Positions 4,819 through 35,031 of a DNA stretch of 41,293 nt are shown here, one piece after another; the first letter of the stretch is position 1; each line of letters begins with the position of its first letter. The stretch is from Dimargaris cristalligena (Eukaryota). The stretch is from positions 1-41,293 of the forward strand of contig ML002329.1 in assembly GCA_003614675.1 (NCBI GenBank). The letters run 5' to 3'. A model generated the notes under the pieces. It saw only the letters and a list, made by a program, of their open reading frames with translations, did no database searches and was not told the DNA's origin. The translations under genes and the position numbers were made by a program.

Positions 4819-6302
4819 CTATAGGGGTAGTTGGGACTCTAATAACAACTTCTGGGTAAGTGCATTAGGTAGAAAGGCCGATCCATCTGCTTGAAATAGC
4901 GTATTAATCACTGAGTGCCGTACCCGAAATGCCAACTGAGGGAGCCCATGATGCACTCGGCCTGCATAGACCATCCGCTGGGCATCAAATGTACCGTGGC
5001 ACAAATGCGGATCTGTTACTAGAGGCTCCCCCAGACCACCGAGAAACATCGTGTAAGCGCATTCGAATCCTAGTTGCCGGGCGCATAATATTGGAACTCC
5101 ATCATCATCAGAACTGAAAAATTCAAATGCGAGATAGGACCATTGATCTAAATCATACTCCAATACCACCATGTAAAAGAAATTCTGCATCGAAGTGGAC
5201 CAATAATCCTCGCCTTGCTTCTGCAATATTGTGATAAAGCGGTCTAATTCTGGGATACAATTGTTGGCCCCCAATGCGGTGATGATTTCGGCGACTAGCT
5301 GGGTCTTAACAGCAGCGCCGAGTATTCGTTGGGGACGAATCCATTGGCGGCTGACTATATCCAAAAGGGTATTAGTGATTGCGAATGGGACCTGGTCCAC
5401 GATCAATTCATCGTCGGCATCCACGTAGCCTTTGGTCATACGGAAAAGAAGCTGTGTTACTAGTTCCACCTGACCCTGGAGGGCCATAAACACTAGCGGA
5501 AAGGCCAAATACTGCTGATGGGCGGGGAGTTGGTTGTAGCAAAGGTAGCCCCAGTCGTCTTTGACCTCGGCCAGTACAGTTAGTAAATCGGGGGAGGCAG
5601 TTAGTAACTGATCCCCCCGTGTGGTAGCATCTGAAGTTAGCCTGTTACTTTGCAAACGTCTCCCCTCCCAACCGATCCCCATTTGCTTGAGGTGTTGGTA
5701 AACTTCGTACATTAGGGCGGTATTATATTCCTGTGCCAATAACGTTTGAACGGCCAATATTAGAGTGGAACTATCCCAGGAAAATGTCATGGCTTGATCA
5801 ATTTTGGCCCAATCCGACTGGCGCTGTTAGTTTGCCGGCGCGAGTAAATTTTACCATGTATAAATAAATATTATTTATATTCGTTAGAAATGTGCACTTA
5901 TTTGACGTAATTGGAGCTATATGGAAACTTGGGTTAGCACTGTTATCCGATGCTACCCCATTAGGTATAGCTCCTATGTTAATTTATTATAAACAATGTT
6001 ACAGTTATACTTACTTTCAATATAGGTTTGAGTTTTGGGGTCGCGGCGGCATAGGACCAGCCCATGCGGTGGGATAGACCATAGTGGAATACGTCGCTGA
6101 CAGACAGGCGGTTAAGCACTTCATTAATGATTTCGGGGGGTAGGTCTTGAATCGAACGAGTCTCAAGTTGTGTATATAGTGTTTCTATAGTCGGCTGGGG
6201 GGTTGTGGTTGGGCTGGGGGAAGAGGTTTGTAGTGAAGAAGCGACGGAGTGGGCAGTCAGCCATAGACACAGTGACAACAGAGTGTGGTTGTTAACTAAC
6301 AT
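4819..6302 (-). CDS. Secreted protein with N-terminal F-box-like motif, 2 exons, ~430 aa
   Basis: complement(join(4819..5823 or 5817,6015..6302)). Phase-0 GTAAGT donor after ...PILK; two in-frame CAG acceptors are possible. Signal peptide MLVNNHTLLSLCLWLTAHSVAS, then a Ser/Thr/Pro linker, then SIQDLPPEIINEVLNRLSVSDVFHYGLSHRMGW (F-box-like). Confidence 0.75.
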
Positions 6303-7226
6303 TTTCCAATAACCAATGTTTAAAACTCAAGTACTGAAGCACTGGTAATTAAATAGATGGATGAAAAAGACAATGTAAGTGGTTGTAAAAGATTGGACTG
6401 ATTAAAGCAAAATGGCCAACAATGATACCTGGATATACAGGGGGGTAGTTCTGCCTCGTTTTATAAAGTAACTATAATCCACTAGTTTGCCTATGTGCCA
6501 AGAAAACTGGAATATCCAATAATAAAGAGCTTTCTAGGGCAATAACAGTGGAATAATCATATTATTTTGATCAATGGGCATCGGTTGAGTATCACAAAGC
6601 TAGCAGGTGTTACGATACTGACTATATAACCACAGTGGTTGACATGGCCAAGGCAGAAGAATGGCTTGTCCCCTCCTCGCTCGTCATACTGTAGGTAATA
6701 TGGACGGGAAATCCCATCCATACAGATCGCTTTTGGGATCTGGGCCCAATAGCTTGGCCATTAACCCTGAAAAATAAACAGCGGGCCATATAAGTTGGTT
6801 TGGGTTGTCGTCAAGCTTATGCCCTTAAAATTAAATCATTTGGGCGCCCCCATTCTAGGCGGATTGTAAATTTATTACTTAAAAGTAGGCCAACTAATAC
6901 CAACCAAGCCCATCCCACTTTAGCATCCTTATGGGTGAATAGCAGCCATGTTTCTACTAAAGCCTGCTCTATTTGGGATATATTTTGGGACAATTAAGAA
7001 AATGAGACCAAACTACCGATTTAGTATCCAGCTTTTTCCTAGCCGAGGCCTATTGACGACAAATATTCAGCGTGGTTGGGATGCCCTTGCCTTTTGTTAC
7101 ATTATCCGGCCATTTCCAATCCGAACCACCCTTAGTCGTATCTCGATAAGTCGCTGTCATTTATTCTTTGCTGCTACCCACTATTACCCATTTCTACGGC
7201 TACCTCCATCCGAACTCCTCTCCGAC

Positions 7227-8906
7227 ATGTCAGTCTCTCCCCCCTGGACCGAGGCCAAATTGGCCACCGACGAAGTATCCAAAAAGGCTCTCCTCACCTT
7301 TCTTCATGAGAATGCCAACAACGAGGTAAGTCATAGTTTCCTCCCTTTCTAATGGTGGACTGCGTGTGCAACAGTAGCCTATTCTCTACCCTACCTTGAT
7401 TGCACCGACTGCCTTTTCAGGGTGGCTTCGGGTTTTATCCCGAATATCCCCGATGACTGGGTATAAATTCGACACTCTATTCATACTTGATTTGTATTCT
7501 TACGCCCTGTCCTTGTAATTTTGTCCCAATCACCAATAGTTTCTTTTAGCCCACCGGTTAAAGGGTAAGATCGTGAATTTGGCCAAGACTTTCAAGAAAG
7601 AGCCGCTCGTGGAGTTTTACAACGAACTCTTCGCCACCCAGAGCTTCCGGTAGGTGTTACAATGTAATGACGATCTTACTTGGGAATGTTTCATTTTGGT
7701 GATCTGTATATTATAGCAATTACTTCAGCCATTCTACTACTCCGTAGAGCGGATATGTACTCCCGATCCGATATCCCTTCACGCATATACATATTCATGG
7801 TTAATCATTACTAGGTAGAACGCCACCTTATTCACCCAATGCATAACGCACCCTATCTATACCACCGTGATGAAGTCAACCTGATGAGGTCCCCATCAAT
7901 GAATATACCCCTGGAAATACGGATCAGGAGGGCACTACAACTGCTGAGACCTCTGTTTCTGACGCGCCCGAGGGCCCGCCTAAGTACAAGAAAGTGGTGA
8001 TCAAAAAGGGCAACAAAACCTCCATCCCCAAGAAGGGTGACACTGTGTCGTGTTGGTAAGTGTAACGAATAATGCTGGGATTCATTTATGGACATGTATA
8101 CTATATAACCCCCGATTCACCCTATCGGGATTGGATGTGACCACATCACCTTTCGAAGTCGATCTAATACGATGGTATATACTTCTAATATTTATTTATA
8201 ATTCGTCGGGGCATAATAGGTACACCGGAAAACTGGAGAACGGCAAACAATTTGACAGTAATATTCCCAAGGGCCGCAAGAAGGGAGTTGCCCTTAAATT
8301 CAAAGGCAAGTCATACAATGATACACACCAAGTTATGGTAGATCATGATGGTGTATTGCATGGATCAAGGATGGGTGATTTCGTATCCACCGACTCCTAG
8401 TTGACTCTAACACATACACCCCATCATCAGTTAAATATTACCATCTAACTCATGGCAACCTCCCTTGGCGACCTTGAATCTATATATTTATATATATTAC
8501 TTAGCCGGTGTTGGTAAAGTTATTCGTGGATGGGACGAGGCACTCCTAACCATGTCCGTGGGTGAAAAGGCCGAACTCACCATCGAACCGGAATGGGCCT
8601 ACGGCAAAAAAGGCATGCCCGAAGCAGGGTAAGTACCACTACTATTGTATATCGTTTGGGGGGATACCTCTCTCTGGGATGACGTTACCCTCTTGAATTC
8701 CGCATTGCCGATACTGAAGGGGCCGTGTCTATAAGTTTCACATCCTCCTATCGGGCACTACGCACCTCTAGGCTATCTACTAATCTATATGATGAATATG
8801 TTTCCCCCACTAAATGCAATTCACATTACACCCAATAATTAAATTATATAGGATCCCACCGAATTCCAAGCTTATCTTCGAAGTGGAGCTCGCGTCTATC
8901 GAGTAA
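7227..8906 (+). CDS. FKBP3: FKBP-type peptidyl-prolyl isomerase, FKBP25/FKBP3-like (N-terminal basic helical domain + FKBP domain), 6 exons, ~217 aa
   Basis: join(7227..7325,7540..7649,7876..8055,8220..8305,8505..8628,8852..8906). Motifs SKKALLTFLHENA, FLLAHRLKGKIVNLAKT, PKKGDTVSCWYTGKLENGKQFDSN, GVGKVIRGWDEALLTMSVGEKAELTIEPEWAYG, IPPNSKLIFEVEL. Intron 4 has a GC donor; the exon 3 acceptor is the least certain. Confidence 0.92.
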
Positions 8907-9156
8907 AATCTACATTCAACGTTACAGGCCCGTTTAATCGTTATTACACCTTCTATTATGCGAATTGACAACCCCGAAAGCTTCAACTGGCTTTGTTATT
9001 TCATTTTTTACGAGGCTCCTATGTGCCCCTAGGGGTATTTATGGTGAGTCTCGCCCGTCCCCAATAGTGTAGTAGACCTTTATAAAGCACCGTGCTATTG
9101 TGCCTTTAAAGTGCCCGCTTTTACCCCTGCTTCCCTTTTATTATTTGAATAAAAAT

Positions 9157-9695
9157 TGCTGCCCGGGTTAATCACTCTTTGTCAATAGTACTCGGAGTGG
9201 GTTTCTAGTACTAACGGAAGGGGAGCAGGGGTCTGAGCGCACACAGTTAGTAAATAGAGGTAAGCGTACAAAAACAAGGGATCATACAGGTATACACACT
9301 TACTGGGGAGTGGGTATGAGTAGATGTAGCTTATTGGGTGAATAGGGTGGAAATATAAACTAATGAACTAACAGGTCCCGGCCGCAACCCCTTTTATATA
9401 CGCAGGGACGACTCCAGAGAGAGGGTTCCAAGGGAGCTACTTATAATAACCTCGGATAGATAAACGGGCCGGCTGGGGCTGCTGGTATCCGGAAGACTCT
9501 AATGATGATCAGAAGAGTCTTTAGATCAGCACCGGAGTGTGTGGTGGCAACTGGTACCAGCGGTCAGGGGGAAATGACGAACAGTAACCCCATGGTACCG
9601 GGTGTTACTATAGGAAAAGCAATATGGCAAGATAAGACCTAATAAGATATGTCAGTCTTACCAGGCCAGATTAAGGCTAGTTGGTGGGCGTGCCA
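9157..9695 (-). mobile_element. Diverged solo LTR, family A related
   Basis: Co-linear with 35100-35684 on the + strand: GCCCGGGTTAATCACTCTT vs GCCCAGGTTAACCACTCTT, ACTCCAGAG, AGAAGAGTCTTTAGATCAGCAC, GATTAAGG. TG...CA ends; no TSD found. Confidence 0.7.
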
Positions 9696-10769
9696 TATTT
9701 TATCAGCTTCCTTGGAATATTCTACTATTTTATCGAAAAGTATTGATAAATCTAGCCATTCGATTATTCTATCTGAGAATTACTATTCACAGTTCAATAT
9801 CTGATTGTTCCATCAAGCGAGGCGACTGTTGCCTCATTTACCACTCATCAATGCCAACGGTAGCATCTCATTCAACAGTTCCATCCGATGTCACCTCACC
9901 AAGCACAGTTAGCGATGTCACAATTCCGAGTATCCGGCGTTTTCTATTCACTATTTATTTCTTCTTCTATATAAACCTCACTGTCCCGGCAAACCTAGAA
10001 ACCGCAATTGCCAGTCGTAGGTGAAGTCCAAAGTAACCCGCTGTTCGCTTCGACCCGGTCGTTTATTATTGATTATTTCACATATATTGGGTCTATAGTA
10101 TCGACTATTGCGCCCATTTCATCAAATTGTTTTTTCTCATAAAAAACAACGTAAAATCCATACCGTTCTGTCCCTTAAGCCCCTCGTTGGATCTGAGGTG
10201 CGCTCGAATTCACCGTCGAGAACCCCCGGCTTCCCAACCCAATGGCGTAATGGCCGACCCTACCGGACCACTGGGCCTCGGTACGACAGAATTAGATGAA
10301 CGTAGTTGGTTTAAACTTTCAAGAACTATACTAAGCACATTTAAACATGAGGACATTTCAAGTACATAGAAAATTACTCCTTTTGTATCCTTTGTAGCTC
10401 TGCCGTCTGGCCAAAATGACTATTGTTCGCTGCTTGCTCAGTGGAAATCTTTTTGGCAAGGGAGTTGAGTGGTGAATTTTCATTGGCCGGGATAAGGGAT
10501 CATCCAAACTTGGAGCTGTCTGTCTCCTCTGAGGGCTACACTAGCAACATACCAATAATATACTTATTCCCTTTAGTCCTCATTGCCACGATTCTACCAA
10601 TACTGACATAACCGTCCTCTCCTATTGCTGCATCTGACTTGAGTAGGCCAACGAACTCTTAGGAAACATACCCCAAATAGCCGGGTCGAACCTCTCTCAT
10701 ATATAGTCTATCGCTACTTTACATTTCACCCCAGTCGGTTTTTTTCATACTTTCGATTAACACTAAAAG

Positions 10770-12621
10770 ATGACCGGCGCGGCAAACCCCACCTCCCCCT
10801 CTCCGGCCCAGGCGAAGGATTCGAAGCAGGATCCCATCGTGGCTGAGGAAGACGATTTGGAAAATCCCCGGGACCCCACCTACTTTCAGTACTACGGCCA
10901 GCTTCAGCATCAGGTAGGTCCTACATTTTCCATGTGGACACAGTTGGCGAAATGGAGGCTCATCCCTGGGTGGATTGCCGGACACTGGGCCCAATCGGAA
11001 GATTGAAGTCCAGGTGGGCTTGGGCTGTGCGGGGGAAAGGGCGTACTCGGTTGCTCGTCCCGAAGTTTGGACAGTCGTGCTCTTGTTATGTCAAACCCCA
11101 GCGCCAACGTTTGAATACGTTCGTTTACGATCATTATGGATTAATATGCCACCCCTAGGAAATATTTGCTAATCTATATAACCCTATGCGGCCCCCCTTA
11201 ATGGCCGTCCCATCTGCCGAACCCTCCGATATTACTCTTTTTGGATATAAAAATAAATCCAGCAAAATATGCTACAGGACTACGTACGTACCGCTACCTA
11301 CCAGGAGGCCATCTTGCAGAACAGCGCCGCCGTATTCCGTGAACAGAAAGTCCTTGATGTAGGTGCCGGATCGGGTATTCTCTCGTATTTTGCCGTCCAG
11401 GCGGGAGCCGCTAAAGTATACGCTGTCGAAGCATCGGACATGGCCCAAAACATCCGTACCATACTCGAGGCGGCCGACCCCCGTCGCAACGCCCAACCCC
11501 GCAACCCCTGGCTGCACAACAAAGTGGAGGTGATTAACGCCAAAATGGAAGACTCCCGCATTCGCATTCCGCAGGTGGACGTGATCATTTCTGAGCCCAT
11601 TGGGGTGCTGCTGGTGCACGAACGGATGCTGGAATCCTTTGTTCTAGCGCGCGACCGGTACCTCAAACCCGGTGGGGTGATTTTACCGTCGCACGGGACG
11701 ATCCATTTGGCGCCCTTCACGGACAGTGTCCTGTGGACCGAAACCATGGCCAAGGTGCGGTTCTGGGAACAGCCGAGTTTTTACGGGGTTGATCTGAACC
11801 CACTGTTCGGGACCGCTCTGGACGAATACTTCCGCATGCCCGTGGTGGGTTACTTTGACCCCCGCTCGCTCTTGGCGAGCCCCGCCCCGCACGGCTATAC
11901 CGTCGATTTTTCCACGGTCACGGTCGACGAACTGAAGGACTTTACCGTTCCGTTCGCCTGGACCTGCCGGTATACCGGAATCGTGCACGGGGTGGCCGGG
12001 TGGTTCGACCTCAATTTCCAGCCCTTTGCGGCCACTAACCCCCGGGCCTCCCAGTCCACCACCGTCATGATGTCAACTAGTCCCGATGCCGCCCGGACCC
12101 ACTGGCAGCAGGTTCGTTTTGTGCTGAAGGAACCGTTGGCGGTCAACGCACAGCAAGTACTGGTGGGCCGCATGCACTGCCGGGTCAACGACAAGCGGAG
12201 TTACGACATCTCCATTACGTTCAGTCTCTGTCCGCCGGGCACGGACGCCCAGGACCCCATACCCGCCGGGTGTATCTCCCGGGCAGGCCTGTGGTATCTG
12301 CATGAACAAACTTACAACTACAGTTACAATCCCCCCACGACCGATACGGCGATTGCCGCTGCTGCCGCTGCTTCTGCGACCCCGGGCGTACTAGGCAATG
12401 CCTTTGTCGCTTCGGTGAACGCCACGGCCGGTGGTATGGGCGAGGATCTGCTTCCTACCGCGGACTTTTACCCCGAGTTTAACAACCTTTATGCCCCCAA
12501 TATGACGACGGTGGCCAATGCTAAATCGCTGATCCCACCGACGGCCGTTACCATCGATCTACAGACCCCCGTGGTGACAAGTCCTACCGGCACTGATGCC
12601 ATGGCTGAGGATACGGTTTAA
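10770..12621 (+). CDS. CARM1: Type I protein arginine methyltransferase, CARM1/PRMT4-like, 2 exons, ~500 aa
   Basis: join(10770..10913,11263..12621). CARM1-type signatures YFQYYGQLQHQQNMLQDYVRTATYQ, VLDVGAGSGILS, DVIISEPIGVLLVHERMLESF, and the THW loop (RTHWQQVRFVL). Confidence 0.92.
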
Positions 12622-13781
12622 TTCATTTATTATTTATATTTACGGTGGCAGAGACCAAAAAGGGAAAGCGACAGCCGCAATCCTACAAGATGCAGGAAGA
12701 AAAGGGAACTAAGCGATGTGGTCCCCTGGTTTATTGTTTTTTATTCTTCCGGGTATGCGAACTGCGAAGGGGGGACATCTTACTATCCTTCTGGGGACCA
12801 ATTCATTATTGGTGACGGTTGCGGTTGTTCTCCAACGTGCAAGTCGAACCGGGAACAGAGTGGGAGAGTATCCCCTAAAAAACGCATCACACTCCTACCT
12901 ATTCTACCCAGTCCCATTTTACACGGACACTGCCTTATTGCAATCCTATTTCGGCTATTTATGATGATGAGTTAAATCTATTAAACATTCCCAGGCAGGA
13001 TCAAATCAAAACGGCCTCAATATCGGACTGTGCTGGGACGCAGTTGGCTGTGATATATGATAATATGTCCTAAAAGGAGGAAGGGTGGGCCGAGTGTTGA
13101 CCACGGCCATTTTGGCGAGGGGGAGCCAGCATAAGTGAGTGGGTACGTTAGACCCCGCAGGAGAGGCTATTACGCTCTGAATGGTGGCAAACGAAGAAGA
13201 GGACTGAAATCGTGTGGGATCAACTGGATTCGGGGTAAACTAACCGTGTTCGGCACAGTGGCTCGAATAAATGTATTAATATTTTGCACTTTTAAATTTA
13301 CAAAGCAACTACTCGGTATCCAAGGGAGGTAGAAGTAAATGGTTACCACCCGGGGAAACTCCAATGTCTCTAGTATATACCAGCCAAAACCATGTATTTA
13401 GTACTATTTTCAACAACCAGACATGGGGGGTTTGAAAGTGACTACTGCAAGAATACTTTTTTCGAGCCACTGTACTAAACCCTTCTAGTTCCCGTTGATG
13501 TAGCAAGAGGGGAGGATGGATATATCACTGCTATTGGTAAATCTATGTAACTGGAATAGGCCAACTAACTCTTGAGGAGTATACCCTTTATAGCTGGGTT
13601 GAACTACTCCCATCTTAAATTTTGGTCTCATTTGCCGAGAAGGTTCGCTCCCTCGCTTCCCTTTGTTGCTCATTTCCATTTCCATTGATTTTTCATTGCC
13701 TTTTCATCCTCATTAGTTCTTATAATTGTGTATCTGTCTTACCGTAACTCCCTACTTATCTTCCGACATTTACCACCCTCC

Positions 13782-16700: not shown

Positions 16701-17187
16701 TATTTTTCAATACCTTTTACTGACCCCTTTCTCCCACCTAGCTATGGGGCCGAGGACCTAACACCATCGCAGCAATCCCGGGTGCGCGTGCCCCGATACA
16801 CGGTTCCCAGTTACGATGTTATGCCGACTGCGTCACCGGAGATCCGGCATTTGGCAGGCGCTGGACGGGTAAGTGCGCTATAACTTTTCCTGTCAACGGA
16901 CTGGGGGGTTTTGTTTGTTTGTTTTTCCATCCATCTCTCTCGATCGGTGGACGTTTTCGAAATAGTAGCTCCAGTATCTACTATATATCAGCTACTCTAT
17001 TCTACAGAGTTGGTATTGCTCACGTATGTCCCTGGCGCCTATGCTAAATTGCCACGATATTAATATTTGTTTTTATTGGGATAATCGTATTCTCTTACTT
17101 TTACCATGTTCCTAGAATCAACCGGAGCATATTAAACGCCTGAAAGCCCAGATGCTCAAGAGTAAGGCGAAATCCGGTGGCCGCTAG
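13782..17187 (+). CDS. IWS1: Transcription elongation factor IWS1/Spn1, 11 exons, ~388 aa
   Basis: join(13782..13811,14087..14165,14518..14689,14794..14885,15072..15151,15360..15508,15730..15859,16093..16292,16507..16542,16742..16868,17116..17187); all GT-AG with frame preserved. Motifs KPAIAKIKLLP, LLDSVRLWLEPLDDGSLPALDIQ, HLRESGIGKLVQFY, LVSKWIRPL. Confidence 0.92.
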
Positions 17188-17928
17188 TCCAGCGTGATTT
17201 TGTCAATGTACCAACCGGCCTCTTCTTTCCCAAATTAAGGCTAACTTTTGGTCAATGGATGTCCGGCATTTAAACGAAAATAATGGATTCTATTTTACAT
17301 AAAATGTGATTATCGAACTTTATTAGAGGGAATCATCCCTCGACGCTCAGAAAATATTGGAGAACCAGACCTAGCTTGAACGGATTTTGGGAATGATTTT
17401 TGGGGCGAGGGGGGGGGTGGAGAGTGATCCAAGAATGTCTACCCCCAACACACGAGATTATTAAAGTTGGATTGATCTCATATCACTACATTCCATTTTA
17501 TAGGTGTTTGTAACTGGTTAAATATCCGAGATTTTCAATAAACGCGCTTGCTAACGGCTAAGCCCCGCATTAAGAAAGGTCTGCGATGGGATATTAATTT
17601 AAATAGGAATATAATACCGGTCGATTCCCACTTTTTCGTTGGACCGACAATAACATGATTATCAAAAATCGATTGTAATTCGATCTATAAACACGTCTTT
17701 AATATAAGCAATATATTGCAATCCTCATCATCCAAGGAGAATCGGTGTTATAAAGTCAGGTTAGCTAAAGCTCGAGATGTTCACGATAAAAATAAATAAA
17801 AATAGAATACTGGGTTTTATTTGCAAGTTGTAAGTTGAACACATAGATATTCTCCAAAGAATTAACTGGCATTGGAGGGGTGTGAGCATAAATGTACGAA
17901 GAAGGGATGATGGAGTGAGGGGAGTTCA

Positions 17929-20900
17929 TTAATTTTTCGGGGCCACTGAGTCCATAAACTCCTTAATTCGTGGAAAGTGCCGGGGCACAATTTGGTAAGC
18001 GCCCGCGGCGGCCGGTGATTTTTGAATCAGGGTTTGGCAAGCCGCGAAGAGTTCGGCGTCCGGCTCCGCCGTGTATACTGCCGCACCCGGAGTATGCATG
18101 GCTGCCGTGGCCGCTGTGCAAGCCGCATCCGCCCAGCCGGCCAACAGCCGGAAAGCATCGAGGCGATTTTCGGCGGATAAGGAATCATTGAGGTTGGAAT
18201 GAGCCGATAGGAGGCGGGTTTGCAAGAACTGACACAGCCGCAGGACCTGGAGAAAGGCGAAGCGACTTTGCGGTACGCTGGCGATTAGAAATCCGGTGAT
18301 AAGGACTTCGTGGAGGCGGCTGTGTTTGAGGATTTCCGCATACAAGGGGCGGATTTCGGATATGATGCAGCTAACGTAGGATTGGTAGAAGGCATCCACC
18401 GCTTGGGTCGACGGTGGTGAGCCCGAAAGGGAAGTGGAGGAGACGGCGTTATTGAGGTAGACTTGGAAGACGGGGAGGGCCTGCATGAGGGCATGTAGGT
18501 CCAGGCGGAGTAGGCGGTCCAGCACGTATTGCCCGAATATTTGTAGGGCGATTTCATGGGTAACTACCAACTTGCTGATTTCCTCAATCAGGGCCACGGT
18601 ATTCACCTGAGAGCGGTAGGACTCCTGCATAATCTCCTCGGCTTCCTCGTCTGACCAATAGTCGAATTGGCCAGTGACATCGTGATCGAGGGCGTTACTA
18701 AGGGCTTGATATACCTCTTTGAGACGGGCTTGATTGGCGCCAATAATCTGGGACAGATTCACCATGAAATTCTGGATAATTTCTTTGTCGATTTTATGGA
18801 CCTTAAAGTCGCGCGTTTCGATCATCAATTTGGCGCGAGTACCGAGTTTGACCATAGTGGCTGCCCAGATGAGATTTTGGTCGGCCTGGAATTAAATTAT
18901 TAGCGACGGTGGTTTAAGTATGCAGAGAAGTCAGCGTGGACGAGGGATGGTGGTTTTTAGAAGTGAATGGGTAGAATACTATTATTATTATTATTGGGGG
19001 GCGGGGCATTCACTAGCCTCGAGTAAATTCCGAATAGCCCCGATAATCATATAAATAGAACAGACGCTAAAAATAGTATCACTTAGCCCTTGGCAATACC
19101 CATTAAAACTTACCTTGGGACTAACAAAATTGGCCACGTCCTGGATTAGGATACTCAGAAGTTGAAGGGAAAAGGTTTGGCAGACGCAGTCACTATAGAG
19201 AATCATGCCGATTTCGCTATATACGGGAATTCAAAGACGGCAAACAAGGGCCTCCAAATAGAGGTTCGATAAAAATAGGGATTAGTGGGGCTAAATAGTA
19301 TGTTTTCAATCCTGCTCTTAACATTGGTACACATACTCGTGCAGAAAGGTGAAGCAATCTCATACTTACCCATACACAGGACCGTTTTGATCCACCGTGT
19401 TGAAGAATTTCTTAATGTCGTTGACACGCCGCTCATCCATGACTTGGTTGCGGAAGCAGGCGTCCAGATACCAGACCAGGAGGTAGCAGGGATCCTTGTC
19501 GTAAATCTGGGGTGTAATTGTGGCGAAGTAGACCAATTTGGGCAGACGGTTAGTTGATTAGTTGTGATAGGGGGATATAATAAAACCAGCATGGTATACT
19601 CCAACGATTCACCAATAGACAACATGAAACGACCGGGCCGACTAAAAGGCCTCTCAGGTAATGGATGCGAGGAATATTGGCCTACCTCGCGAATGTCGTT
19701 TTCGTGCATTTTCATCAGCAGGTCGAAGCGCAAATTACAGTAAGCTTTATCGCCGGTTTGTACGAACCCCTGGCGGAGCACACCCAGCACAGTGTTGTAG
19801 AGGGAAATGTTGGTGTGAATAGCACCAGCCAGGGTTACTACACTGGGGTGGTTTCGTCTGGGGGGATAACGGAGAGGCGACATAAGGGAGAACGGGGATT
19901 AGAACATGGAGGGCACGGTGTAATTTAATGACGATGACCCCCATTGAAGGGGATCCGATAATTAAGCGCTGAGGGATAGGGCCCTGCTGGTATGGATCTG
20001 GCTTTACCTTTGTTGAATGATAGAGGGTACGTCAGTGGGTCTCAACTCCCGACCCAGGGTTTTAAGGGAAGGGTCGTTACGATAAACTTCAAGCAGGGGA
20101 GTGACAAAGGCGTGGAACAGGCTGGGCTCGGTAGTCCACATATACCGCTTCACCTCAACGGGACAAACCTGGGGATCGGCCATGCGCAGCAGTGTATTAA
20201 GAAACAAGTATACGGGGGAGAGGGAGTGGTTAACGAGGGGATATGTATATGTGGTTAATGAATAGCCGAAGAGGGAGTTTGCAACAGGCTCGGAGATTCA
20301 AGCAAGAATAAGGGGAAACTTGAAGGTTTGGTCTTACGTCGAAGAGTTCGGGGAGGCTGACAATAGTCTGCGTGGCATCGGGGGTGATGCGTTCGGGCTG
20401 GGACTTTAGCAGCCGTAGAGGAATGTCCCGCAGCTGTGGAATGTGTAGATAGGGCAGGGTTTGTTCCAGGAGCTTGTCGAACCTGAATTGATTTCCCAAG
20501 AGAGGAACGTATACAACGGACAGATAGTCGGTTAAGCTTGGGTTGCGCAGAGGGGTTCGGGATAGCAGTGGATGTGGCCCGCGTCTCCGGCCGTTTCGAT
20601 AATAATCGCTAAGATACGGTAAACAACCCCCCGTTTGAATCGCCGCAAAGAGAGGCAAACAGACCATGTATTGCGCCCGTGCCTTTATCGTCCAGCTAGA
20701 AATCATATATGGAGAAGTTAGGTAACCCAATGGGAGTAAAAAACTTACTGCTCCTTGGTCAGGCCGGCCTCGATCTTGGCCATGATGGCCTTCTTGAGAG
20801 CGTCCAGACAACTGGTGTGGACCAAGCGACGTGAACAGCCGGAGGTGTCGAGAATAGGATAGGCGGCTTCGACCTGCGGCTTATGGAAGCCGAATTTCTG

Positions 20901-21854: not shown

Positions 21855-22223
21855 AATTAGATCTGTGTTCAAATCATCCAGCCCCCTCTGCCTGGGTTAT
21901 TTATAGAGCGCCCACCCAAAACCTAATGCCGGGCAGTAACAGGGGCCTCCCGCCTTTTCATTAAGACACCTGTTCTTTCTTCTCCCCGCCCGGGCCTAAA
22001 GCCCTCCAAGCCAACGAGAGGGGAGGTCCCGAGTGTAGTCGTCAAGTGACCTCCTTCCCTAGCCTTGGGGTGGGCAGGCCTTTCTCTTGCTTTTATTCGC
22101 TTATGTTTGGAATCCGCTTTGTTTAACCGGTTCCCTTGTTAAAAACTCTCTCCTCCTTGTCGTTCGCCCTCAGCCGTGCCCCTTCCCCCTCCCTCACTCT
22201 TCACCCTATACTCTATTCCCACC

Positions 22224-23715
22224 ATGGCTGACGAGCCCCCCCCCCCAGTCCGACTCCACTACTCCCCGCCCCCCCTCCCCTTCGGCTCCGGAGGGCCAGG
22301 CGCCCCCTGCGGTTGAAGCCATCCTCGATACCATGAGGGACGCCTCCTCCAACGACGATTACCAAAAGCGGCTCCAGACCCTCCTCGAGAAACTGAGCCT
22401 GAGCGGCACCAGCGTCAAAGATCTCGAACCCCGTCTGCGGGAGCATAAGTTCTGGAGCACCCAGCCCGTCCCTAAACACGGCGAAGCCATCCTGGAGGAC
22501 GGTCCCATCAAGCCCAATGTGTCCCGCGACCAGGTCCGCCAGGATCCCATCCCCCTCGCCCCGGGCTTCGAATGGGCCGAGCTGGAGCTGGGCGACGAAG
22601 CCTGCATGAAGGAACTTTACGAGCTCCTGACTTTCAATTACGTCGAGGACGACGACGCCATGTTCCGCTTCAACTACTCGTCCGCTTTTTTGCAGTGGGC
22701 CCTGCAACCCCCCGGCTGGAAGAAGCAGTGGAATATCGGCGTGCGCGTGGCCGCCTCGGGCCGCTTGGTCGCTTTTATCAGTGGTATCCCCGTTACCTTG
22801 AAAATCCGAAACCATGTCACCGATACCGTCGAAATCAACTTCATGTGCGTCCACAAGAAACTGCGTAACAAGCGTCTGGCCCCTATCCTGATTAAAGAAA
22901 TCACCCGCCGCGTCAATCTCGAAGGCATTTTCCAGGCCGTTTATACCGCCGGCGCCTTTTTACCCACCCCCCTGGCTACCTGCCGCTACTACCACCGCTC
23001 CCTGAGCCCCAAGAAATTGGTCGAGACCGGCTTCTCGTACTTACCGCCCAACTGGACCATGGCCCGCTTGGCCAAGGCCTGCAGTGTGCCCACGGAGCCC
23101 ACCCTCCCAGGCCTGCGCCCCATGACCGTTGCCGACGTCCCCGGCGTCCGTGCCCTGCTGAATGCCTTCCTCGACCGCCACTGTTTGTTCACGGCCCTCT
23201 GGCACTCCGACGAAGAGGTCCAGCACTGGCTCATGCCCGTCGACGGCGTTATCTGGTCCTATGTCGTCGAATCCCCCACCACCCCTGGTCAAATCGATGA
23301 CGTGGTTTCCTTTTATAACCTCCCTTCGTCCGTGATTAACCACCCCGTGCACAAAACCATCAACGCCGCCTACCTGTTTTACTACGCCACGCGGGCCGGC
23401 CTCGACACTCCGCCGGCGGCCGAACTGACCACCACCCCCTCCGCCGCCACCGGTGAGTCCGATGCCTCCGCCCCTCCCCAGAGCCAACCCGACGATCCCA
23501 AGCTGAAGATGGCCCTGACCAAACTTATCGAAAGTGCCCTGACCCTGGCCAAACGCAATGACTTTGACGTCTTCAACTGCTTGGCCATGAATTTCAACCA
23601 CCTCTTCATCGACGACCTCCGTTTCAAGCCCGGTGATGGTTATCTGAAGTTCTACATGTATAACTGGCGCTGCCAGCCCGTGGATCACAAGCAAGTGGGT
23701 CTGGTGATGCTTTAA
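22224..23715 (+). CDS. NMT1: Glycylpeptide N-tetradecanoyltransferase (N-myristoyltransferase), intronless
   Basis: Motifs HKFWSTQPVP, NYVEDDDAMFRFNYS, VEINFMCVHKKLRNKRLAPILIKEITRRVN, FKPGDGYLKFYMYNW and the VGLVML C-terminus. The likely ATG at 22224 is out of frame across a C11 run; the next in-frame ATG is 22333. Confidence 0.95.
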
Positions 23716-26700: not shown

Positions 26701-27805
26701 CCCCACTTCCCCTTCCTACCTTTGGATTAGTCAGGCCGGGGGAGGGGGTGGCGATAATAGTACGAAAAGGGCACATATGCTCACTCCAGCCGAGCACACC
26801 CTGTGCGACTTGTTGGACATTTTCGTATCACCCGCCGCCGGTGCCGTCTCTTCCGCTGGCCCCCTTTACACTTTGGGAAGCCCGTCAAGGCTGCCTTCAA
26901 TGTCCACATCGGCCCTTCTATACTCAGCCATCGGACCTTTAGGGAATCGGTAAAATAAATAGAAATAGAAATATAGTATGGCTTACAAATATAGTGTGAG
27001 TGAGGTACCTGGTCTGTCACTACTAAAAATCGAGTAGAGTATACACTATCCCTCCAGTATACTCTCCTCCCCAGCGCCCTTTTGATGTTATTCCCACCGT
27101 ATCCCTTGATATTAGGCCACTGGGCCAATGGAGAGGGATAAGTGAGCTCTTGTATTCCCCTAACGGCCTCCCTCCCTCCAAATGTTCCTCGTTATTGCAA
27201 ACGGGTTCCTAAACTAGAATTCCCATGTAACTTTCTTGGTTCGTTGTACAATTATTCATAGCAAGGCGTATGAATAAAGCGCTCAGGCGGTGGTCTTCAC
27301 TAGTTAAAGAAGGCCAACGTCGAGTGGCTTCGCTGGCCCAGCCCCTCCCTCCCCAACACAGGATGGGGGTAATACGTAAAGGGCGTTCTTCCAGATAATA
27401 TATATAAGGCAGCCAGGTGCCGTACCACTGGGGATGGAGTATCCTTTCACGGCGGTTCTCTTATGGCCCCGACATCTCTTTTTCATTTAATATCCTTACA
27501 TTCTGCCAAAACTCTAAAGAGGAGTAGTATCCATCACCTTAACGTTCTAGGGTGGTATTCGTTATATTTCTATTCGTTCCTGGTTTATCGGTTTGCATTT
27601 ACAGCTGCGTTCATTATCCCCAAGTGGATAGATTTCCTATCGACCTACTTTTCAGCAGTGCCTTACATATATATACCAGTTAAATTCTTGTTCATTCCAT
27701 TTTGGCCTTCTATTAAATATTGTTGCATTTATATATTATTCTTGGCATTTTTCATTCCCGTATATTTATCCACCATTTGCCCTTCACTGCCCGGTCACCA
27801 TCGAT

Positions 27806-29290
27806 ATGCGTCTACCTATTATTCTGACCTGTTCACTCAGTGGACTTGTTTTGCTCAGTGTGGTACAAACCACCCGAGGTGAAACCCATTCCGCACCAAC
27901 ATCCCTAGCATTTTCCCCACAATTGAGTATCCCTACTTACACTGTGGTTACCCTAACGCCTTCGCCAACCGCGGACTTACCCACCGCCATGGGTACCAAC
28001 CCCCCAACCGATGGCGCCCGTCCCACTCCGCCCCAGTCCGAGGGGCCCCTGAAACAAAGCCCACCACCATTGCCCAAACGACCGACGGATAGAGGCATCT
28101 CTACTCTGCACCAACCGTTATCCGCTATACCCAACTCCCTGGAGGTCAGCCCGGCCGGTTTGGCCATGTCCGCACAAGCCCAGATCTTATCCGAAAACGG
28201 CATTCCCGGCCCCTCTCCTTCCAAAATAAACCAAGCCGAAATGCGGAAACAGGTATGGCGGGAGTTAAACCAATTTTTGGAAAACTACCGAGCGGAATCA
28301 GCCAACAACAACAACCGTCACCAACCCACCGTACTGCCGGATACTAGACCGCCCGAGGCACATACGTCCCCCCTTCTGCAGCCCATCTTACTCTCACCTG
28401 TTCTTCAGTTTCAGAACTCTATGCAAAACATCGACCCCGTGGAAACCATTAAACAACACGATGCGACAATTCGGGAGATTGTCCAAAAGGGCATCGAAGC
28501 GATCGTCCGGAACGAAAACTCGCAAACTACCACCACGGCTAGCAACCTCGAAGATCTCGAGAAATACCCCGAAGCCATCAAGGCCGAGCTCGTTAAAGCG
28601 GTGGAGCCCATCCAGCAACGCAAAGCTTTATTCGAACAAGCCATGGCTGCGGTCATTGACCAACTGAAAATGATTAATCCCCGCATACCCCCGCTCCTTA
28701 GCGAACTAAGTCAAATGGGCAATGCCACCGATGTAGAACGCATGCGGGTAATTAATGAGCTCCGGGCCATTGCCTTGGCGAAGGGGAAGGGAGCGTTACT
28801 GTTGGGTCTAATCCCCGACGTCCAGGCCGTTTATGACGCCACCCAGAAACTGTGGGTGTGGGAAAACACCGCCGTCAAGGGTTGGCCCAACATGAAGAAA
28901 ATCCTGGATCACGACTTCCGGATCCGTTTACCCATCGAAGTGTTCAAGGCCGCTACCTTTGAGGAAGGCACGGCCCAACTCACCCTGAATCGGCGTAAGC
29001 ATGATATCAATCGCCAAATGCCCCCAATTTACCTGGAAATGGCCACCCCGCAGATCCACCATACCTCTTCGGATGCCAAACGGAATTGGTGGGAGCAGGA
29101 GCTGAGGCGCGCGGACGAAACATTCCAGGAAATGGTAGCGCTGTATAGGGTGGTTTGGGATTATTTGGAATCGATTAAGCAGTTGAAAGAACAGGCCAAG
29201 CATAATTTGCCGTTGGTCCAACAGTTGTGGGAGCTCCATAGGTACTTGTACGATGTCAAACTGAACGCGAAAACCAACTTTAAACCTTAG
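27806..29290 (+). CDS. Secreted hypothetical protein, 494 aa, Pro/Thr-rich N-terminal region and helical C-terminal region
   Basis: Long intronless ORF with signal peptide MRLPIILTCSLSGLVLLSVVQTTRG. No recognisable domain. Confidence 0.85.
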   Translation: MRLPIILTCSLSGLVLLSVVQTTRGETHSAPTSLAFSPQLSIPTYTVVTLTPSPTADLPTAMGTNPPTDGARPTPPQSEGPLKQSPPPLPKRPTDRGISTLHQPLSAIPNSLEVSPAGLAMSAQAQILSENGIPGPSPSKINQAEMRKQVWRELNQFLENYRAESANNNNRHQPTVLPDTRPPEAHTSPLLQPILLSPVLQFQNSMQNIDPVETIKQHDATIREIVQKGIEAIVRNENSQTTTTASNLEDLEKYPEAIKAELVKAVEPIQQRKALFEQAMAAVIDQLKMINPRIPPLLSELSQMGNATDVERMRVINELRAIALAKGKGALLLGLIPDVQAVYDATQKLWVWENTAVKGWPNMKKILDHDFRIRLPIEVFKAATFEEGTAQLTLNRRKHDINRQMPPIYLEMATPQIHHTSSDAKRNWWEQELRRADETFQEMVALYRVVWDYLESIKQLKEQAKHNLPLVQQLWELHRYLYDVKLNAKTNFKP

Positions 29291-29714
29291 GACTCCTACC
29301 GGTCTCAATATAATGTCCAAGGGGAGAGCTCTACCTACTCTGACTACTTGTAGCCTCAACTCTCACCTTTTCACTTGCAAGCCTGCTTCGCTTAACCAAC
29401 CCGGGATCCCGTAACAGCTCAACAATGGCCGGCAGCTACAGCCAATGTGGGCGTGACACCCACTCTATTCCTAACCTCGGAATGCCAATCAGTCCGATGG
29501 ACTTTATATTACGATTGAAAATAAGTTCATTATAAACACGATTAACCAATGAGTTGGATATATATATTACATAGAATAAATGCATTTCCAATACATCTAT
29601 AAACGTCGATACAGCGACCTCCGTGGAATTAAAATAGCTTAACTAATACTAGTTGTTGTTGTAGTAGTTTTTTTTCTTAAAAAAAAAGCTGGTATAACAT
29701 GGAGAGCGAGAGTG

Positions 29715-31286
29715 CTAGATATCCAGTGTCATGGACGATTCCAAGCGATCCATAGAGGCGGATGATGCCTCTGGACCCAATCGTCCGAATCCCTCATTTC
29801 GATCCGTATCGTTGTCCCGTTCATTAGCGTAATATTCCGCCCGTTGCTGTTTAGTTGTCGACCGCCCATTCCGCCGCCACTGGCCCCGAAACGATGCTCC
29901 GTGGTCGCCCCCACCCTCGACATCAATATCTTCATCGTCATCCTCGCTATCCGATGAGCGTCCACCCTTCCTTCCCCCGGTACTTTTTCCCTCCAGGAAC
30001 TGCTGAATATCCGGTGGAATTTCCTGCATCTGCACCGACGGGGCCCCCTGAATAGACCTTAGTTGTTCGAGTACCGTTCGACTGACGTCATTGAGATAAG
30101 CGGCGTTATTCTGGTTAGGGATCCGACCGGACAGGACGGGGTGGAGCTGGTAGTCGGGGGCGAAGAATTCGTGATAAACCGTGGGTGGTAGCTCGTTGGG
30201 CAGGTCCACATCCAAGAGGACGGACGTTTCGTAGGTCCAACAGCGGGACACATTGCGAATGGTGTAGCCCCCTCCGCCCAGCACGATGAGCGGGATGCCG
30301 AAGGATTTCGTGAAGCGGACGCATTCGCCATGGGCCGAAATATTGAGGTTGAAACAGCCCAACCGATCGCAGCCGAGGGAATCGGCCCCGCATTGCAGGA
30401 CAATAGCCGACGGGTCGAAGTTGGCGATGGTAGCCCGCATGATTTGCTTGAACAGGGCCACATAAGTGGCGTCGTCGATGCCGTCTTTGAGCGGCACGTT
30501 GACGGCGAATTGCTTGCCCATTCCGTTTCCCCGCTCGTCAATGTGTCCGGTACCGGGGAAGAATTCGCCGTCGTATTTATGGAACGACACGGTCATGACC
30601 CGGTCGGTATGGTAGAAGGCCTCTTGCACGCCGTCGCCGTGGTGGATATCGATATCCACATACAGGACCCGGGGGTGGACCCGGAGCAGCTGGAGAATGG
30701 CCAGCACGATATCATTGACGTAGCAGAAGCCAGACGCCTCGCTTTTTTTGGCGTGGTGCAGCCCCCCGGACCAATTAATGCAAATATCCGCATCGCCGCT
30801 GAGCAACCGCCGAGCTGCCGCCAGCGAAGCTCCCGCGTAGATTTTGCAGAAGTCGTACATGCCCGAGAAGATGGGGCAGTCGTCGCCGATGTTAAATTGG
30901 GAGAATGTCTTGGTGAGTTGGGCCACATTGTCGGGCGTTACGCGTTGCAGGAATTCCACATAGTCCGCGGCGTGGAACTCGCGGATCTCATCGTCCGTGG
31001 CCCAGCGCGTATGGAAGACGTCCAGATACTGGGGAAGCCCGTAGCTGGTGACGAGGTGGTTGGTGAGAGCGAGCCGATGGGGTTTCATGGGGTGTTTCTC
31101 GCCGTAATGGTAATTGGCGACTTGCTCATCGAAAAAGTAGGAGACCCGCGGTTGGGAATGGGCAGCCGTGCCGCTGGTGGTATGCCGATTCGAAGAGAAA
31201 TCGAGCTCGGGGGCCACAGGGTCCCCGCGCTTTTGGCGGGCCGACCGGCTTTGCGAACTGGAACTGAAGGTATCGCTGCGGCCCAT
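29715..31286 (-). CDS. HOS2: Class I histone deacetylase, Hos2/HDAC3-like, 523 aa
   Basis: Motifs [92 protein letters not shown]; acidic tail. Confidence 0.93.
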
Positions 31287-33435
31287 GGGAAATGGATAGT
31301 CGAAAGGAGAGTAAAGAATTTACCAGTAATATATTGGCAAACTATGCAAAAAGGGACCAATGGTTTATATAGAAATAAGGGAACAAGGAATGGAATGAAG
31401 GAGTTCGCTTGGGTGTAAGCCTTCTAAACACGAATGGGAGGTATCGATAGAGCTACTCCCAGAAGTGGGGTAATTCATGGGAGGCGTGAAGGCTTCAGAC
31501 TGGAAGAACTTATTGTGAGCAAGGTGGAAGAATCATTCACACATAGGTTCATGCTTGGCTCATTGTTCTTAACCATCAGAGCCATTTGCGTATTTACGCT
31601 ACATAGGATCGACTTATTCGCTAAATCTATCCCGCACCCTTTCATTACAGCCTGCTTTACATTATCAAATACCATACTTATCGTGAATTATAGGGATTCC
31701 CTCTCGGATAGAAATACGAAGGAACTTATTGAATGTCGAAGCCTTCCTTGCTAATCTCCTACATAGAAACCCCGATAATGCTTGAGTATGGGTTAATCGA
31801 ATAAGCCATGAAGTTTTAGTGTCAATTAAAAGGCCTGGAATTTTCACGGGGGCGTGCGTGAGAGGATAATGGATTCGATTCACCTAATGTCCAACTGGAA
31901 TCGTGGTGATATAATCCACATGGACTTTATTTACTAATTCCAAAAAAATTATCCATTTCCCAACTTGTTTTAATGAGACTTGAAAGAAGCGGCCTTTTGA
32001 AATAACTCTAGTGGTTCGGGCTGTAACAATACGGGAGAGATTTGATTAGGCTGTATAACGAAAAACTTGCTGGGCCATGTAAATACCACTGGTTAAAAAT
32101 GAATTCCCTGTCTATTTCCCCCTACACACGCCATTTACAACCCTATTTACAACCGGACTACGTTTCTCCCATATCAACAAACCAATTTCTGTGGCAGTTT
32201 TAGGTCTCACACCTCTGTTTGTAAATAATTTAAGGTAAGTACGGGTTTTTGCTGATGTGTTTTTTATTATTATTGAGAGCTGTAGTGTCCCCAGAAGTTA
32301 TCAGCGTATACTCTGGCACCTTTCCTGTAATATCTATCTTTGTCGAAAATTATTTGGACCATTTGCCGTCTACCTGGCCCCTCTCTTCTTAGACTCCCAA
32401 TCCATTGGGAGGATCTAGCTTCAAAAGAAATGTGGATTTATTTGAATCTATAGTCTCTATCCTTATACACTATGGCTGGTCATCGATTACCAATTCTATG
32501 AGCATTTCCTCTTGGACATTTTCTACAAAACTGAGTGGATAAAATGACTTACACAGCAGTAGCCACTCTTACATTTCGAAAATAGCCAGAAATTCACGCA
32601 ACAGTAATAGGGAAGTGAAAGACATACTCAATAAAATAAGTCTAACCACATTGCCTAGTAATGTTATACATATTTGTTTAAAACAAAAACTGCCAAATCG
32701 GTCTCGATTAAGTGTAAATATATCGATGAACTCATGTATAGAAGTTCATAATACACTACTGAGGATAATGAGCCGGTGCGTGTTAATGGGTTCTATTGAT
32801 TTGGATGAAACTAAATACATAATCAGGTGCCAAATGTCCGGGTATACCGCCCATATACAATATCAAGTATGGGCACTACAAGGACAGGGAAGTGATATTT
32901 CCATCAATTTTATCCAGCGTCCTTCTTTTGATCATTGAAAACCCGTGTATTCGCAGCGTAACGTGCCCCGGTGCTCAACAAAAATAAATAATATAAGTCG
33001 GCCCACTTTGTAGTATACCCGTAGTCCTTTGGGGTGTTTCATACGTCAATTAAATGGCACTGGCGGAAACCAGCGACATGATCAAGTCAGATTTACTAGG
33101 CGAATATAGGACCAAGTAATGGGATTATTGATGTGATGATCCTAACGCTTTAAGTTTAACGAATATGCAGTTTGTGCTATTCATAATCTATTTTCTTCGT
33201 AGTTATCCCACAGTCTTCAAGTATAAATATTAGATATCTTGATCTCTTAGGCACCACTAACCTGTCACTTTGCTGTCTTCATCAATTTTATTATTGATAT
33301 TGTTTTGGCCTTCGCTTTTTTTACACTATTTCCTCGGTTCTTCATTTGGATACTAACGGCAGTTGTCTATTTTATACCCCATTGGCTTGTTGGTTTTATT
33401 ACAAAGCCCTAGTCCGACCTTCACCTTCACCAATT

Positions 33436-35031
33436 ATGTTCCGCACCATTTCCCGGTTGACCATGTTATGTTTATGTATTGCGATTATTAGCATATCGGT
33501 TTTAAATTTGGGAGTCCAAGTTTCTGGCCACCCACGCCCTGGTGGCGAAGTCCCGTCATCTAATAGTATGCCGCCATCTGAAGCGTACTCAGCCTTGGGT
33601 GGTAAAGTAAATAAGGGCTCTCAAGGAGACAATGCCCAAGATTCGCAACTCCTGTCCCTGCCTCTGGAACTATTCAATAAGCTGGTCGCCGATTTATCGT
33701 GGGAGGGACTTTGTAACCTTGCCTTGACCTCTAAAAAAGGATACTCTATGGTATTGAGCAGCTATCGAATGTAATTACTGAATAAGGTAAACATCTGAAT
33801 CACCCCCCCCCCTTCAGGACGTTAGCATATAATCAAAGACCGACCTTTCACATCATTGGGACTACGTGCCGGTTTATCGAGCGCCAGATTTTTCGACATA
33901 GTTACTGTTGCAATAGCACTTTTATATATTCTATATTTTAAGTATATCGTTACACAGTTCCTTATCTAACAATAATTTATGGTATCCTCATTTGCCCTTA
34001 TATTTCCATTTGTGGTTCAGTACAAAGATGATTTCATCAGACCTCTTTTGGAAAGTGGCCCGATGGATCCCCGTAAACTTAAATCGATTCTACCGGTGCA
34101 ACTAGATGGGGCGGTACTGAGGAATACCCGGCTTAAGGTCATGGCGACTGTGGAACCCTTGGTGCCTTTTCATTATAGCGACCAAGAGAATATTCGTCGG
34201 CAATTCCAGAATGACGCTACATTGGCCACTAAGCTAGCAAATCTCAATGATATTGCGTCGGACTGGTCGTACATTAATTACACCCAACTAACCGACCGCG
34301 AGAAATGCAAAATATTCCCGCTGATATATACGCTATCAAATATGCCTGTCGAATACACTCTGCACCTGTACAAAAAGCTGTATATTAGGGCCAACGACCG
34401 TGAATTAATTGGTGAGGCTGCCGAAATCCAGGACGACCCCTTACTAAGCTCAATCACCGAATCGTTATCTGCCCTGAACGACAGCCCTATCAGTTCCACC
34501 CTAAGTAACGAGCTGTTGTTAGGAGTCCTTGCGTCCCTTGCTGTGACCGGCCATTCCGCGCAGTTGCTCTGCTTGGGAAGTCAGGCTAGGCGGCTTCGCT
34601 TCCCTTTGTCGAAAACCATGTTGGAGTTCATGGCGCAATTGGTCCTGGAATATGGTGAACCCGAATTGCATCAGTGGGGCGTAAACCATGCTGGACTGTT
34701 GTTTCGAGCCCAAGCCAAAGCCCAACTTCTGGGCTTCCCAAGGGCCACCCAGCTGCTTCCTAATGGGAGACCCGCAATGAAATTTCAAGGGAAGCTATTC
34801 CTTGGCGAATTAAGCAGTTATAGGTTCATCTTTCCACATTGTTATGGAGACGGTACCCCTGCGCTGGCCCTTCAGGTTCGGCGATCAACAGCCACTAGGT
34901 TAGCAAGTGAATTGGGCATCCCGGGGCCTGACTCCATTCACTCGATTGGGCTCCCCCAGGCCAAAGTAATGAAGCTGCTTCAATCGGTTGATATGGAAGT
35001 GCTGACGTGGTTGGCCAATGCTGTGGATTAG
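33436..35031 (+). pseudogene. Secreted F-box-like protein, paralogue of 4819-6302, with an in-frame TAA at 33772-33774 (pseudogene unless alternatively spliced)
   Basis: join(33436..33786,34021..35031), phase-0 intron. Signal peptide MFRTISRLTMLCLCIAIISISVLNLGVQVSG-HP; F-box-like LLSLPLELFNKLVADLSWEGLCNLALTSKKGY. Exon 2 is fully open. An alternative phase-0 donor GTATTG at 33751 would skip the stop. Confidence 0.7.

Follow-up and report, generated by a model that had tools for sequence, protein, structure and literature searches.

F-box effectors that bind host Skp proteins have been described from the Hessian fly (the SSGP-71 family) and from Ralstonia (RipG7), according to the passages of PMC4617103 that deal with them. 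Almost nothing is known of the molecules by which biotrophic mycoparasites control their fungal hosts. The Dimargaritales are mycoparasites of this kind, which form haustoria and prey on Mucorales and on some ascomycetes (outlined in part of PMC9866270). Here, we analyze an entire 41,293-bp contig (the window) of the haustorial mycoparasite Dimargaris cristalligena (ML002329.1 of assembly GCA_003614675.1), an assembly obtained by single-cell genomics from amplified single cells (part of PMC6784888). Two genes in the window, A and B, encode divergent members of a family in which an export-like N-terminal signal is combined with an F-box-like region and a C-terminal domain for which our searches returned no convincing match. 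Such a species-restricted combination of export signal and F-box offers a concrete hypothesis of how a host SCF (Skp1–cullin–F-box) ligase might be hijacked.

The family is restricted to D. cristalligena and has undergone a moderate expansion. An exhaustive phmmer search of 1.84 billion representatives with gene B exon 2 as query (cut-off E ≤ 0.001) returned 15 matches, 13 of which are D. cristalligena clusters drawn from two independent assemblies. The other two, P0014 (3,406 aa) and P0016 (976 aa), were rejected as relatives: both are repeat proteins whose spurious matches sum many weak repeat stretches, and neither is matched, even at E ≤ 1000, by a family hidden Markov model (HMM) built from 12 other members with A and B left out. 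Gene A has diverged beyond the reach of the gene B list; counting it, the family comprises at least 14 paralogue clusters, and more A-like members may exist. A word-indexed protein search with gene A exon 2 retrieved its own public model only and has no bearing on family size. The preliminary description of this locus, made from the sequence before any search, had anticipated a large genome-wide expansion; the expansion itself is borne out by these further members, but it is moderate in size and all of it lies in one species. Pairwise identity within the family is 19–35%, and the family tree has the shape of a star, its terminal branches reaching a median length of 1.02 changes per site (2.72 for gene A), in keeping with the old and diversified family that had been proposed. 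The tree contains three supported subgroups, and A and B are not sisters, so that a recent local duplication does not account for the pair. Judging from these alignments, the family is old and highly diverged, and divergence this high is what would be expected of proteins at a host interface. Members are about 430–490 residues long and share one layout, in which a predicted N-terminal signal is followed by a variable linker of low complexity, then by an F-box and finally by the family-specific domain, about 270 residues in length.

Every complete member begins with a sequence resembling a signal peptide. We called the signal by hydropathy, charge and reading of the sequence in the 10 of 14 clusters that have a model with a complete N-terminus; models of the remaining four are short and, like the truncated public models of A and B, begin inside the C-terminal domain. 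All 10 show 0–2 basic residues, an uncharged hydrophobic core and small residues. The uncharged run spans 14–19 residues in 6/10 and 24–26 residues in B, P0009 and P0027, and in gene A it takes up the first 35 residues. In both A and B the signal and the F-box lie within one uninterrupted exon, and their combination is therefore not an artefact of splicing. The preliminary description had called the family secreted; the signal-peptide-like layout agrees with this in all complete N-termini, whereas secretion itself is something we infer. As a separate observation, an [R/H]-P dipeptide, often extended to [R/H]-P-x-P, directly follows the hydrophobic core in 7/10 complete members (B, P0017, P0005, P0007, P0008, P0010 and P0026), a position reminiscent of short post-signal motifs in other effector families.

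Sequence and structural comparisons together indicate that the region after the linker probably has an F-box fold. An LPxE-type motif follows the variable linker in 8/10 complete members, at a comparable position before the C-terminal domain. When these motif regions were isolated, 7/8 matched Pfam PF00646 at E ≤ 10, the best of them with E = 8.1e-7. Four families were returned in all: three are F-box families, and the remaining one, DUF5902, was matched once (E = 0.14). The isolated region of gene A (6015–6173) reached 21.3 bits against PF00646 (E = 2.4e-4), above the curated cut-off of 20.5, with a match that spans profile positions 1–23 of 43 only; the whole of gene A exon 1 scored 20.1 bits, just below that cut-off. 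An AlphaFold model of the paralogue P0017, which is neither A nor B (mean predicted local distance difference test score, pLDDT, 72.9; predicted template modelling score, pTM, 0.73), shows three short helices at residues 50–80. We searched this model against 48,161 chains and viewed the top 50, among which residues 41–98 align to four solved F-boxes: 5k35_A, the F-box of Legionella AnkB with human Skp1 (rank 2, Z 5.5, root-mean-square deviation, rmsd, 3.1, 49 aa), 5ibk_E (Z 4.8, 46 of 48 aa), 6vcd_B, FBXL5 (Z 4.2), and 6bva_E, Fbl10 (Z 4.2, rmsd 2.3, 40 of 40 aa). The fold assignment rests on the Pfam matches and the structural alignments taken together, and it upholds the earlier identification of an F-box. 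Leucine-rich repeat (LRR) proteins, which were the top sequence matches when a profile of the F-box region was compared with the Protein Data Bank (PDB), were rejected as chance resemblances to a short repeated L-x-x-L-P-x-x-x-F pattern.

The C-terminal domain carries the strongest conservation in the family and has no convincing match in the collections that we searched. The most conserved columns of the family alignment fall here and not in the F-box. Exon 2 of A and of B matched no Pfam family, repeat families included, at E ≤ 1, and across the 14 members the only matches outside the F-box at E ≤ 0.1 were CATSPERE_NTD1 (E = 0.064) and DUF6359 (E = 0.071), in one member each. The gene B domain (34222–35028), when predicted alone, gave a model with mean pLDDT 80.1 and pTM 0.79, made of about a dozen helices and a three-stranded sheet near its end. 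Foldseek found no PDB match at E ≤ 0.001 for either the full P0017 model (best 0.31) or the gene B domain (best 0.30). A wide VIA search with the gene B domain reached at most Z 6.0 over 58 residues, against generic helical repeats, and barely covered the last third of the domain (after about residue 190); Z values around 6 are common among helical proteins. The ESM Atlas contained nothing scoring ≥ 0.9 (best 0.89 for P0017 and 0.77 for the gene B domain). The domain had been described as novel and as neither LRR, WD40 nor ankyrin, and neither Pfam nor Foldseek produced a described family that would contradict this. It is fair to call the predicted domain unmatched, which is short of a proven new fold, and it offers structural study a helical domain that is new to it. 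The preliminary description had called it substrate-binding, a designation that we keep as putative.

Genes A and B are distant paralogues. Their exon 2 products are 23% identical over 264 aa (E = 4e-9, BLASTP, single comparison), a significant alignment that supports the paralogy first suggested by eye; the exon 1 products align weakly (E = 0.003). With so little identity left, the A/B comparison is saturated for dN/dS. Against the family HMM, gene A exon 2 scores 83.6 bits (E = 5.7e-28 with Z = 1) and gene B exon 2 scores 230 bits, while shuffles of gene A reached 4.6 bits at best (200 made, 141 of them reported). A six-frame scan of the contig with this HMM recovered the two loci as its sole matches, at the positions and on the strands first given for them (minus for A, plus for B), and the distance of about 27 kb is confirmed at 27.1 kb. 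The three C-terminal blocks that had been proposed as shared lie in order within the A/B alignment and coincide with the columns that are best conserved when the 14 family sequences are aligned. The introns of both genes map to one point of the HMM profile, between positions 89 and 90; this supports an ancestral position common to the two, with the qualification that alignment confidence is low in this poorly conserved stretch.

Gene A looks intact. Its start at 6302 is the first ATG past an upstream stop, and its intron fits the proposal of a phase-0 boundary 43 codons on, counted from the leucine of LP, with a K (K96) as the last residue before it. An in-frame alternative acceptor ending at 5824 would add two residues; versions ending at 5818 and 5824 score 94.7 and 95.0 bits, respectively, and a public model of the gene (P0024) uses the identical donor with the 5824 acceptor.

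In contrast, the same proposal does not hold in full for gene B. The exon 1 claimed for it is not open, because an in-frame TAA (33772–33774) occupies codon 39 of the 43-codon stretch from LP, upstream of the proposed donor AAG/GTAAAC at 33786/33787. The notion of a conserved intron therefore survives as a shared profile position, and in gene B it is attached to an interrupted exon 1. Two splice variants avoid the stop: in phase 0, the donor GTATTG (33751) can be joined to the acceptor that ends at 34020, and in phase 2, the donor GTAATT (33771) to one that ends at 34040. With the stop written as X, the junction first proposed scores 257.6 bits against 252.0 and 250.5 bits for these variants, which thus fall 5.6–7 bits below it, and the alignment to the family HMM continues across the stop. 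By our own reading of the two sequences, made by eye and not taken from a computed alignment, the TAA stands opposite a Q of P0007, the closest paralogue that has this stretch. Judged from these comparisons, the boundary first proposed is the ancestral exon boundary, with the exon interrupted in this assembly. The interruption may reflect a real nonsense mutation, a mistake in the assembly of amplified single-cell DNA, or a move of the splice site to a cryptic donor; gene B would accordingly be a copy in decay, an artefact of assembly, or a gene spliced from a cryptic donor further upstream.

Whether gene B still works is a question separate from what the family does. Quite possibly it is a pseudogene or remnant, in which case the contig would hold one working gene and one decaying copy. 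The stop lies inside the version of exon 1 that fits the family profile best, none of the three candidate donors has a G at position +5, and both public annotations place the start of the gene downstream of exon 1. Gene B also differs between two strains at 5 of 257 amino acids, compared with 0–3 differences in most of nine other family pairs (258–490 aa). This excess is small, however, and the P0006/P0019 strain pair shows 13 mismatches in 335, which may be owed partly to differing model starts. Furthermore, the 336 codons of exon 2 are fully open, keep all family motifs and retain the 230-bit score given above, the two stop-free variants are available, and a single-base error is possible because the assembly comes from amplified single cells (PMC6784888, in part).

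We tentatively read the family as secreted adaptors that would dock on host Skp1 and feed host proteins to the host SCF ligase, because an export-like signal and an F-box are joined in a species-restricted, expanded and fast-diverging family of a haustorial parasite. Under this reading, the proteins would be exported through the parasite secretory pathway at the haustorial interface and would reach the cytoplasm of the host fungus, where the F-box would engage Skp1 of that fungus, and the divergent C-terminal domain would hand host proteins over to the SCF ubiquitin ligase of the same cell, to be degraded. Signal cleavage, secretion, host entry, Skp1 binding and substrate recruitment are all predicted steps. 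By the established positive-inside rule, a basic residue before a short hydrophobic core would place the F-box outside the parasite cytosol, so that Skp1 would be reachable only in another cell.

Several observations weigh against this reading. The signal peptide was judged by hydropathy and sequence reading; the n-region of gene A is devoid of basic residues, and the uncharged run of 26 residues in gene B could be a membrane anchor. The F-box signal is weak: on whole proteins 2/14 members match a Pfam F-box at E ≤ 0.1, gene B exon 1 matches F-box_4 only (E = 0.2, 12 bits against a cut-off of 32), a profile of the F-box region retrieves true F-box chains from PDB sequences at E 0.06–0.8, beneath the chance LRR matches, and pLDDT is about 60–68 in the F-box part of the P0017 model. 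LPxE is absent from P0005 and P0010, which are sisters (bootstrap 93) and keep both the signal and the C-terminal domain; their relationship suggests that the F-box was lost once, in their common lineage, and their retained parts imply that the C-terminal domain may act without an F-box. Genes A and B lie among housekeeping genes with no effector cluster around them.

Some of the same evidence would fit secreted proteins whose site of action is the haustorial interface or the cell wall, not the host cytoplasm, and which work through the helical domain, the F-box unit being a structural remnant that has ceased to bind Skp1. We consider this unlikely. Most members score at or below the Pfam threshold for an F-box, the 2/10 complete members without LPxE retain signal and domain, conservation is concentrated in the C-terminal domain, and the conserved tryptophan of the third F-box helix is not seen in the family alignment. 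Yet 7/8 motif regions still point to the F-box family, the four solved F-boxes align to exactly this region of the P0017 model, and the motif keeps a comparable site between linker and C-terminal domain in 8/10 complete members. The mature proteins are moreover cysteine-poor (0–5), unlike typical apoplastic fungal proteins.

Still less probable are ordinary endogenous SCF adaptors that work on the parasite's own targets, with the N-terminus an uncleaved anchor holding a cytosolic F-box on an internal membrane, or a gene-model artefact: fungi commonly have F-box proteins whose C-terminal domain is an orphan, the hydrophobic stretch of gene B is long enough to span a membrane, and housekeeping genes surround A and B, but the 14–19-residue uncharged run with small residues in 6/10 has the layout of a cleaved signal, an anchor preceded by a basic N-terminal residue would put the F-box in the lumen if the positive-inside rule applies, signal and F-box share one uninterrupted exon in both genes, and absence from every other organism among the 1.84 billion representatives is unusual for a housekeeping adaptor.

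The secreted-adaptor reading can be carried further, to claims that we regard as doubtful. The family might supply the first host-translocated F-box effectors of fungi, and the first in fungus-on-fungus parasitism; its at least 14 adaptors might engage the conserved Skp1 of the host fungus, redirect the SCF ligase there and each select a different host target through the helical domain; and the [R/H]-P motif might serve as a processing or uptake signal.

Public gene models obscure these features. Gene A is represented by models of 233 and 293 aa (P0001 and P0024) and gene B by two models of 257 aa each (P0002 and P0025), and in each of these the signal peptide is missing, together with most or the whole of exon 1. 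The gene B models cut out 34681–34875 as an intron, deleting conserved family columns, and the gene A models cut out about 4978–5158 of exon 2, with a frame shift. Against the family HMM, the public models score 41.9 and 49.9 bits for gene A, compared with 94.7 for the model proposed here, and about 156 bits for gene B, compared with 257.6. Surveys of secretomes or domains that were built on the public models would miss the family. Short models that begin inside the domain are also found in P0003, P0011, P0015 and P0006/P0019, and these may be mis-annotated in the same way as A and B. A different irregularity is seen in P0020 (528 aa), which seems to join a small signal-peptide protein (P0021, 126 aa, in the other assembly) to a neighboring family member; P0007 is that same member in the other assembly, where it has its own signal peptide. 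These three proteins come from another D. cristalligena contig.

The family is uncharacterized in the literature searched, as the preliminary description had assumed, although five members already carry the automatic label "F-box domain-containing protein" in a public database. No paper in that literature contains both "Dimargaris cristalligena" and "F-box". The terms F-box, secreted, secretome, effector and ubiquitin are absent from the main text of the genome paper (PMC6784888), and "F-box" does not occur in the text of a comparative study of Kickxellomycotina (PMC9866270). Judged by titles and abstracts, the literature searched shows no fungal family of signal-peptide F-box proteins; supplementary secretome or orthogroup tables might.

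Table 1. Features of genes A and B and of their surroundings, in window coordinates.
Feature	Position	Strand	Description
Gene A	4819-6302	minus	428 or 430 residues, depending on acceptor
Gene A exon 1	6015..6302	minus	96 codons; from sequence, translation and hydropathy
Gene A signal-peptide-like start	6237-6302	minus	about residues 1-22, followed by a Ser/Thr/Pro-rich linker
Gene A F-box-like region	6015-6152	minus	residue 51 to K96; LP motif at residues 54-55
Gene A intron	5818..6014	minus	197 nt, phase 0; donor GTAAGT after K96, CTAAC branch site, acceptor CAG
Gene A exon 2	4819..5817	minus	332 codons and TAG stop (4819-4821); linker helices and family C-terminal domain
Gene A, three conserved blocks	5491-5559, 5245-5286, 4912-4950	minus	placed by hand on sequence/alignment
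Gene B	33436-35031	plus	27.1 kb from gene A
Gene B exon 1, as first proposed	33436..33786	plus	signal-like start, linker, F-box-like region
Gene B signal-peptide-like start	33436-33528	plus	about residues 1-31
Gene B F-box-like region	33658 onwards	plus	from L75/P76
In-frame TAA in gene B exon 1	33772-33774	plus	12 nt before the proposed donor
Gene B intron, as first proposed	33787..34020	plus	234 nt, phase 0; donor GTAAAC, CTAAC about 50 nt before acceptor CAG
Gene B exon 2	34021..35031	plus	336 codons and TAG stop; linker helices and C-terminal domain
Gene B, three conserved blocks	34258-34326, 34525-34566, 34849-34887	plus	placed by hand on sequence/alignment
Arginine methyltransferase	11257-12621		between genes A and B
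NELF-B/COBRA1	17929-19898	minus	between genes A and B
N-myristoyltransferase	22063-23715		between genes A and B
Histone deacetylase	29715-31319	minus	between genes A and B
Repeat of about 330 nt, copy	4152-4400	plus	
Repeat of about 330 nt, copy	35097-35440	reverse	
Repeat of about 330 nt, copy	39000-39340	plus	
Repeat of about 330 nt, partial copies	39600-39760, 40150-40290		

The rest of the window holds a dispersed repeat and several unassigned reading frames (Table 1). The repeat, about 330 nt long, is present in five full or partial copies whose arms are 79–91% alike. One copy lies about 420 nt downstream of the gene A stop and another begins 66 nt downstream of the gene B stop, with identical orientation relative to the gene at both loci. 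This repeat is much younger than the A/B duplication and is therefore probably a mobile element or one that resembles a short interspersed nuclear element (SINE) or a miniature inverted-repeat transposable element (MITE); it is not likely to have been left by segmental duplication. The whole contig, the repeat included, gave zero matches when scanned for Rfam families and tRNAs. Large open reading frames at 27632–29290 (plus, 552 codons), 2158–3619 (plus, 176 + 262 codons) and 20230–20880 (minus, 216 codons) have no Pfam match at E ≤ 0.001, and the region at 18–22 kb shows a strong positive GC skew (0.18–0.25).

The family resembles several described systems in part. FBXO-class F-box proteins likewise have an F-box near the N-terminus, linker helices and a C-terminal interaction domain. 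They are cytosolic or nuclear and have no signal peptide, whereas the family described here has an export-like start in 10/10 complete N-termini and is confined to a single species. Legionella AnkB is comparable in its F-box part only; solved together with human Skp1 (5k35_A), this part ranks second among the structural matches of the P0017 model. The GALA/RipG7 effectors of Ralstonia offer a parallel of another kind, in that F-box mimicry recruits the host SCF (the passages of PMC4617103 on these effectors). In both bacterial systems LRR or ankyrin repeats follow the F-box, while Pfam detects no such repeats in the second exon of either gene. Type III or type IV secretion delivers these bacterial proteins, which have no eukaryotic signal peptide.

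SSGP-71 proteins of the Hessian fly (Mayetiola destructor) reportedly do have a secretion signal. They too form an expanded, fast-diverging parasite family, in which the F-box stands at the N-terminus and a variable domain that binds the target comes after it; members interact with Skp proteins of the host, and some are without an F-box (parts of PMC4617103), as are some members of the D. cristalligena family. The two families differ in that SSGP-71 carries LRRs, while the D. cristalligena C-terminal domain has neither LRRs nor any other Pfam match and no clear fold match. They also have no sequence relationship, the D. cristalligena proteins are produced by a fungus whose host is another fungus, and Skp binding is documented there and predicted here. 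Since no LRR or ankyrin repeat follows the F-box, the likeness to SSGP-71, GALA/RipG and AnkB would be one of mechanism and not of membership. If the secreted-adaptor reading is true, the family would represent the F-box-mimic effector logic of bacteria and the Hessian fly in a new form.

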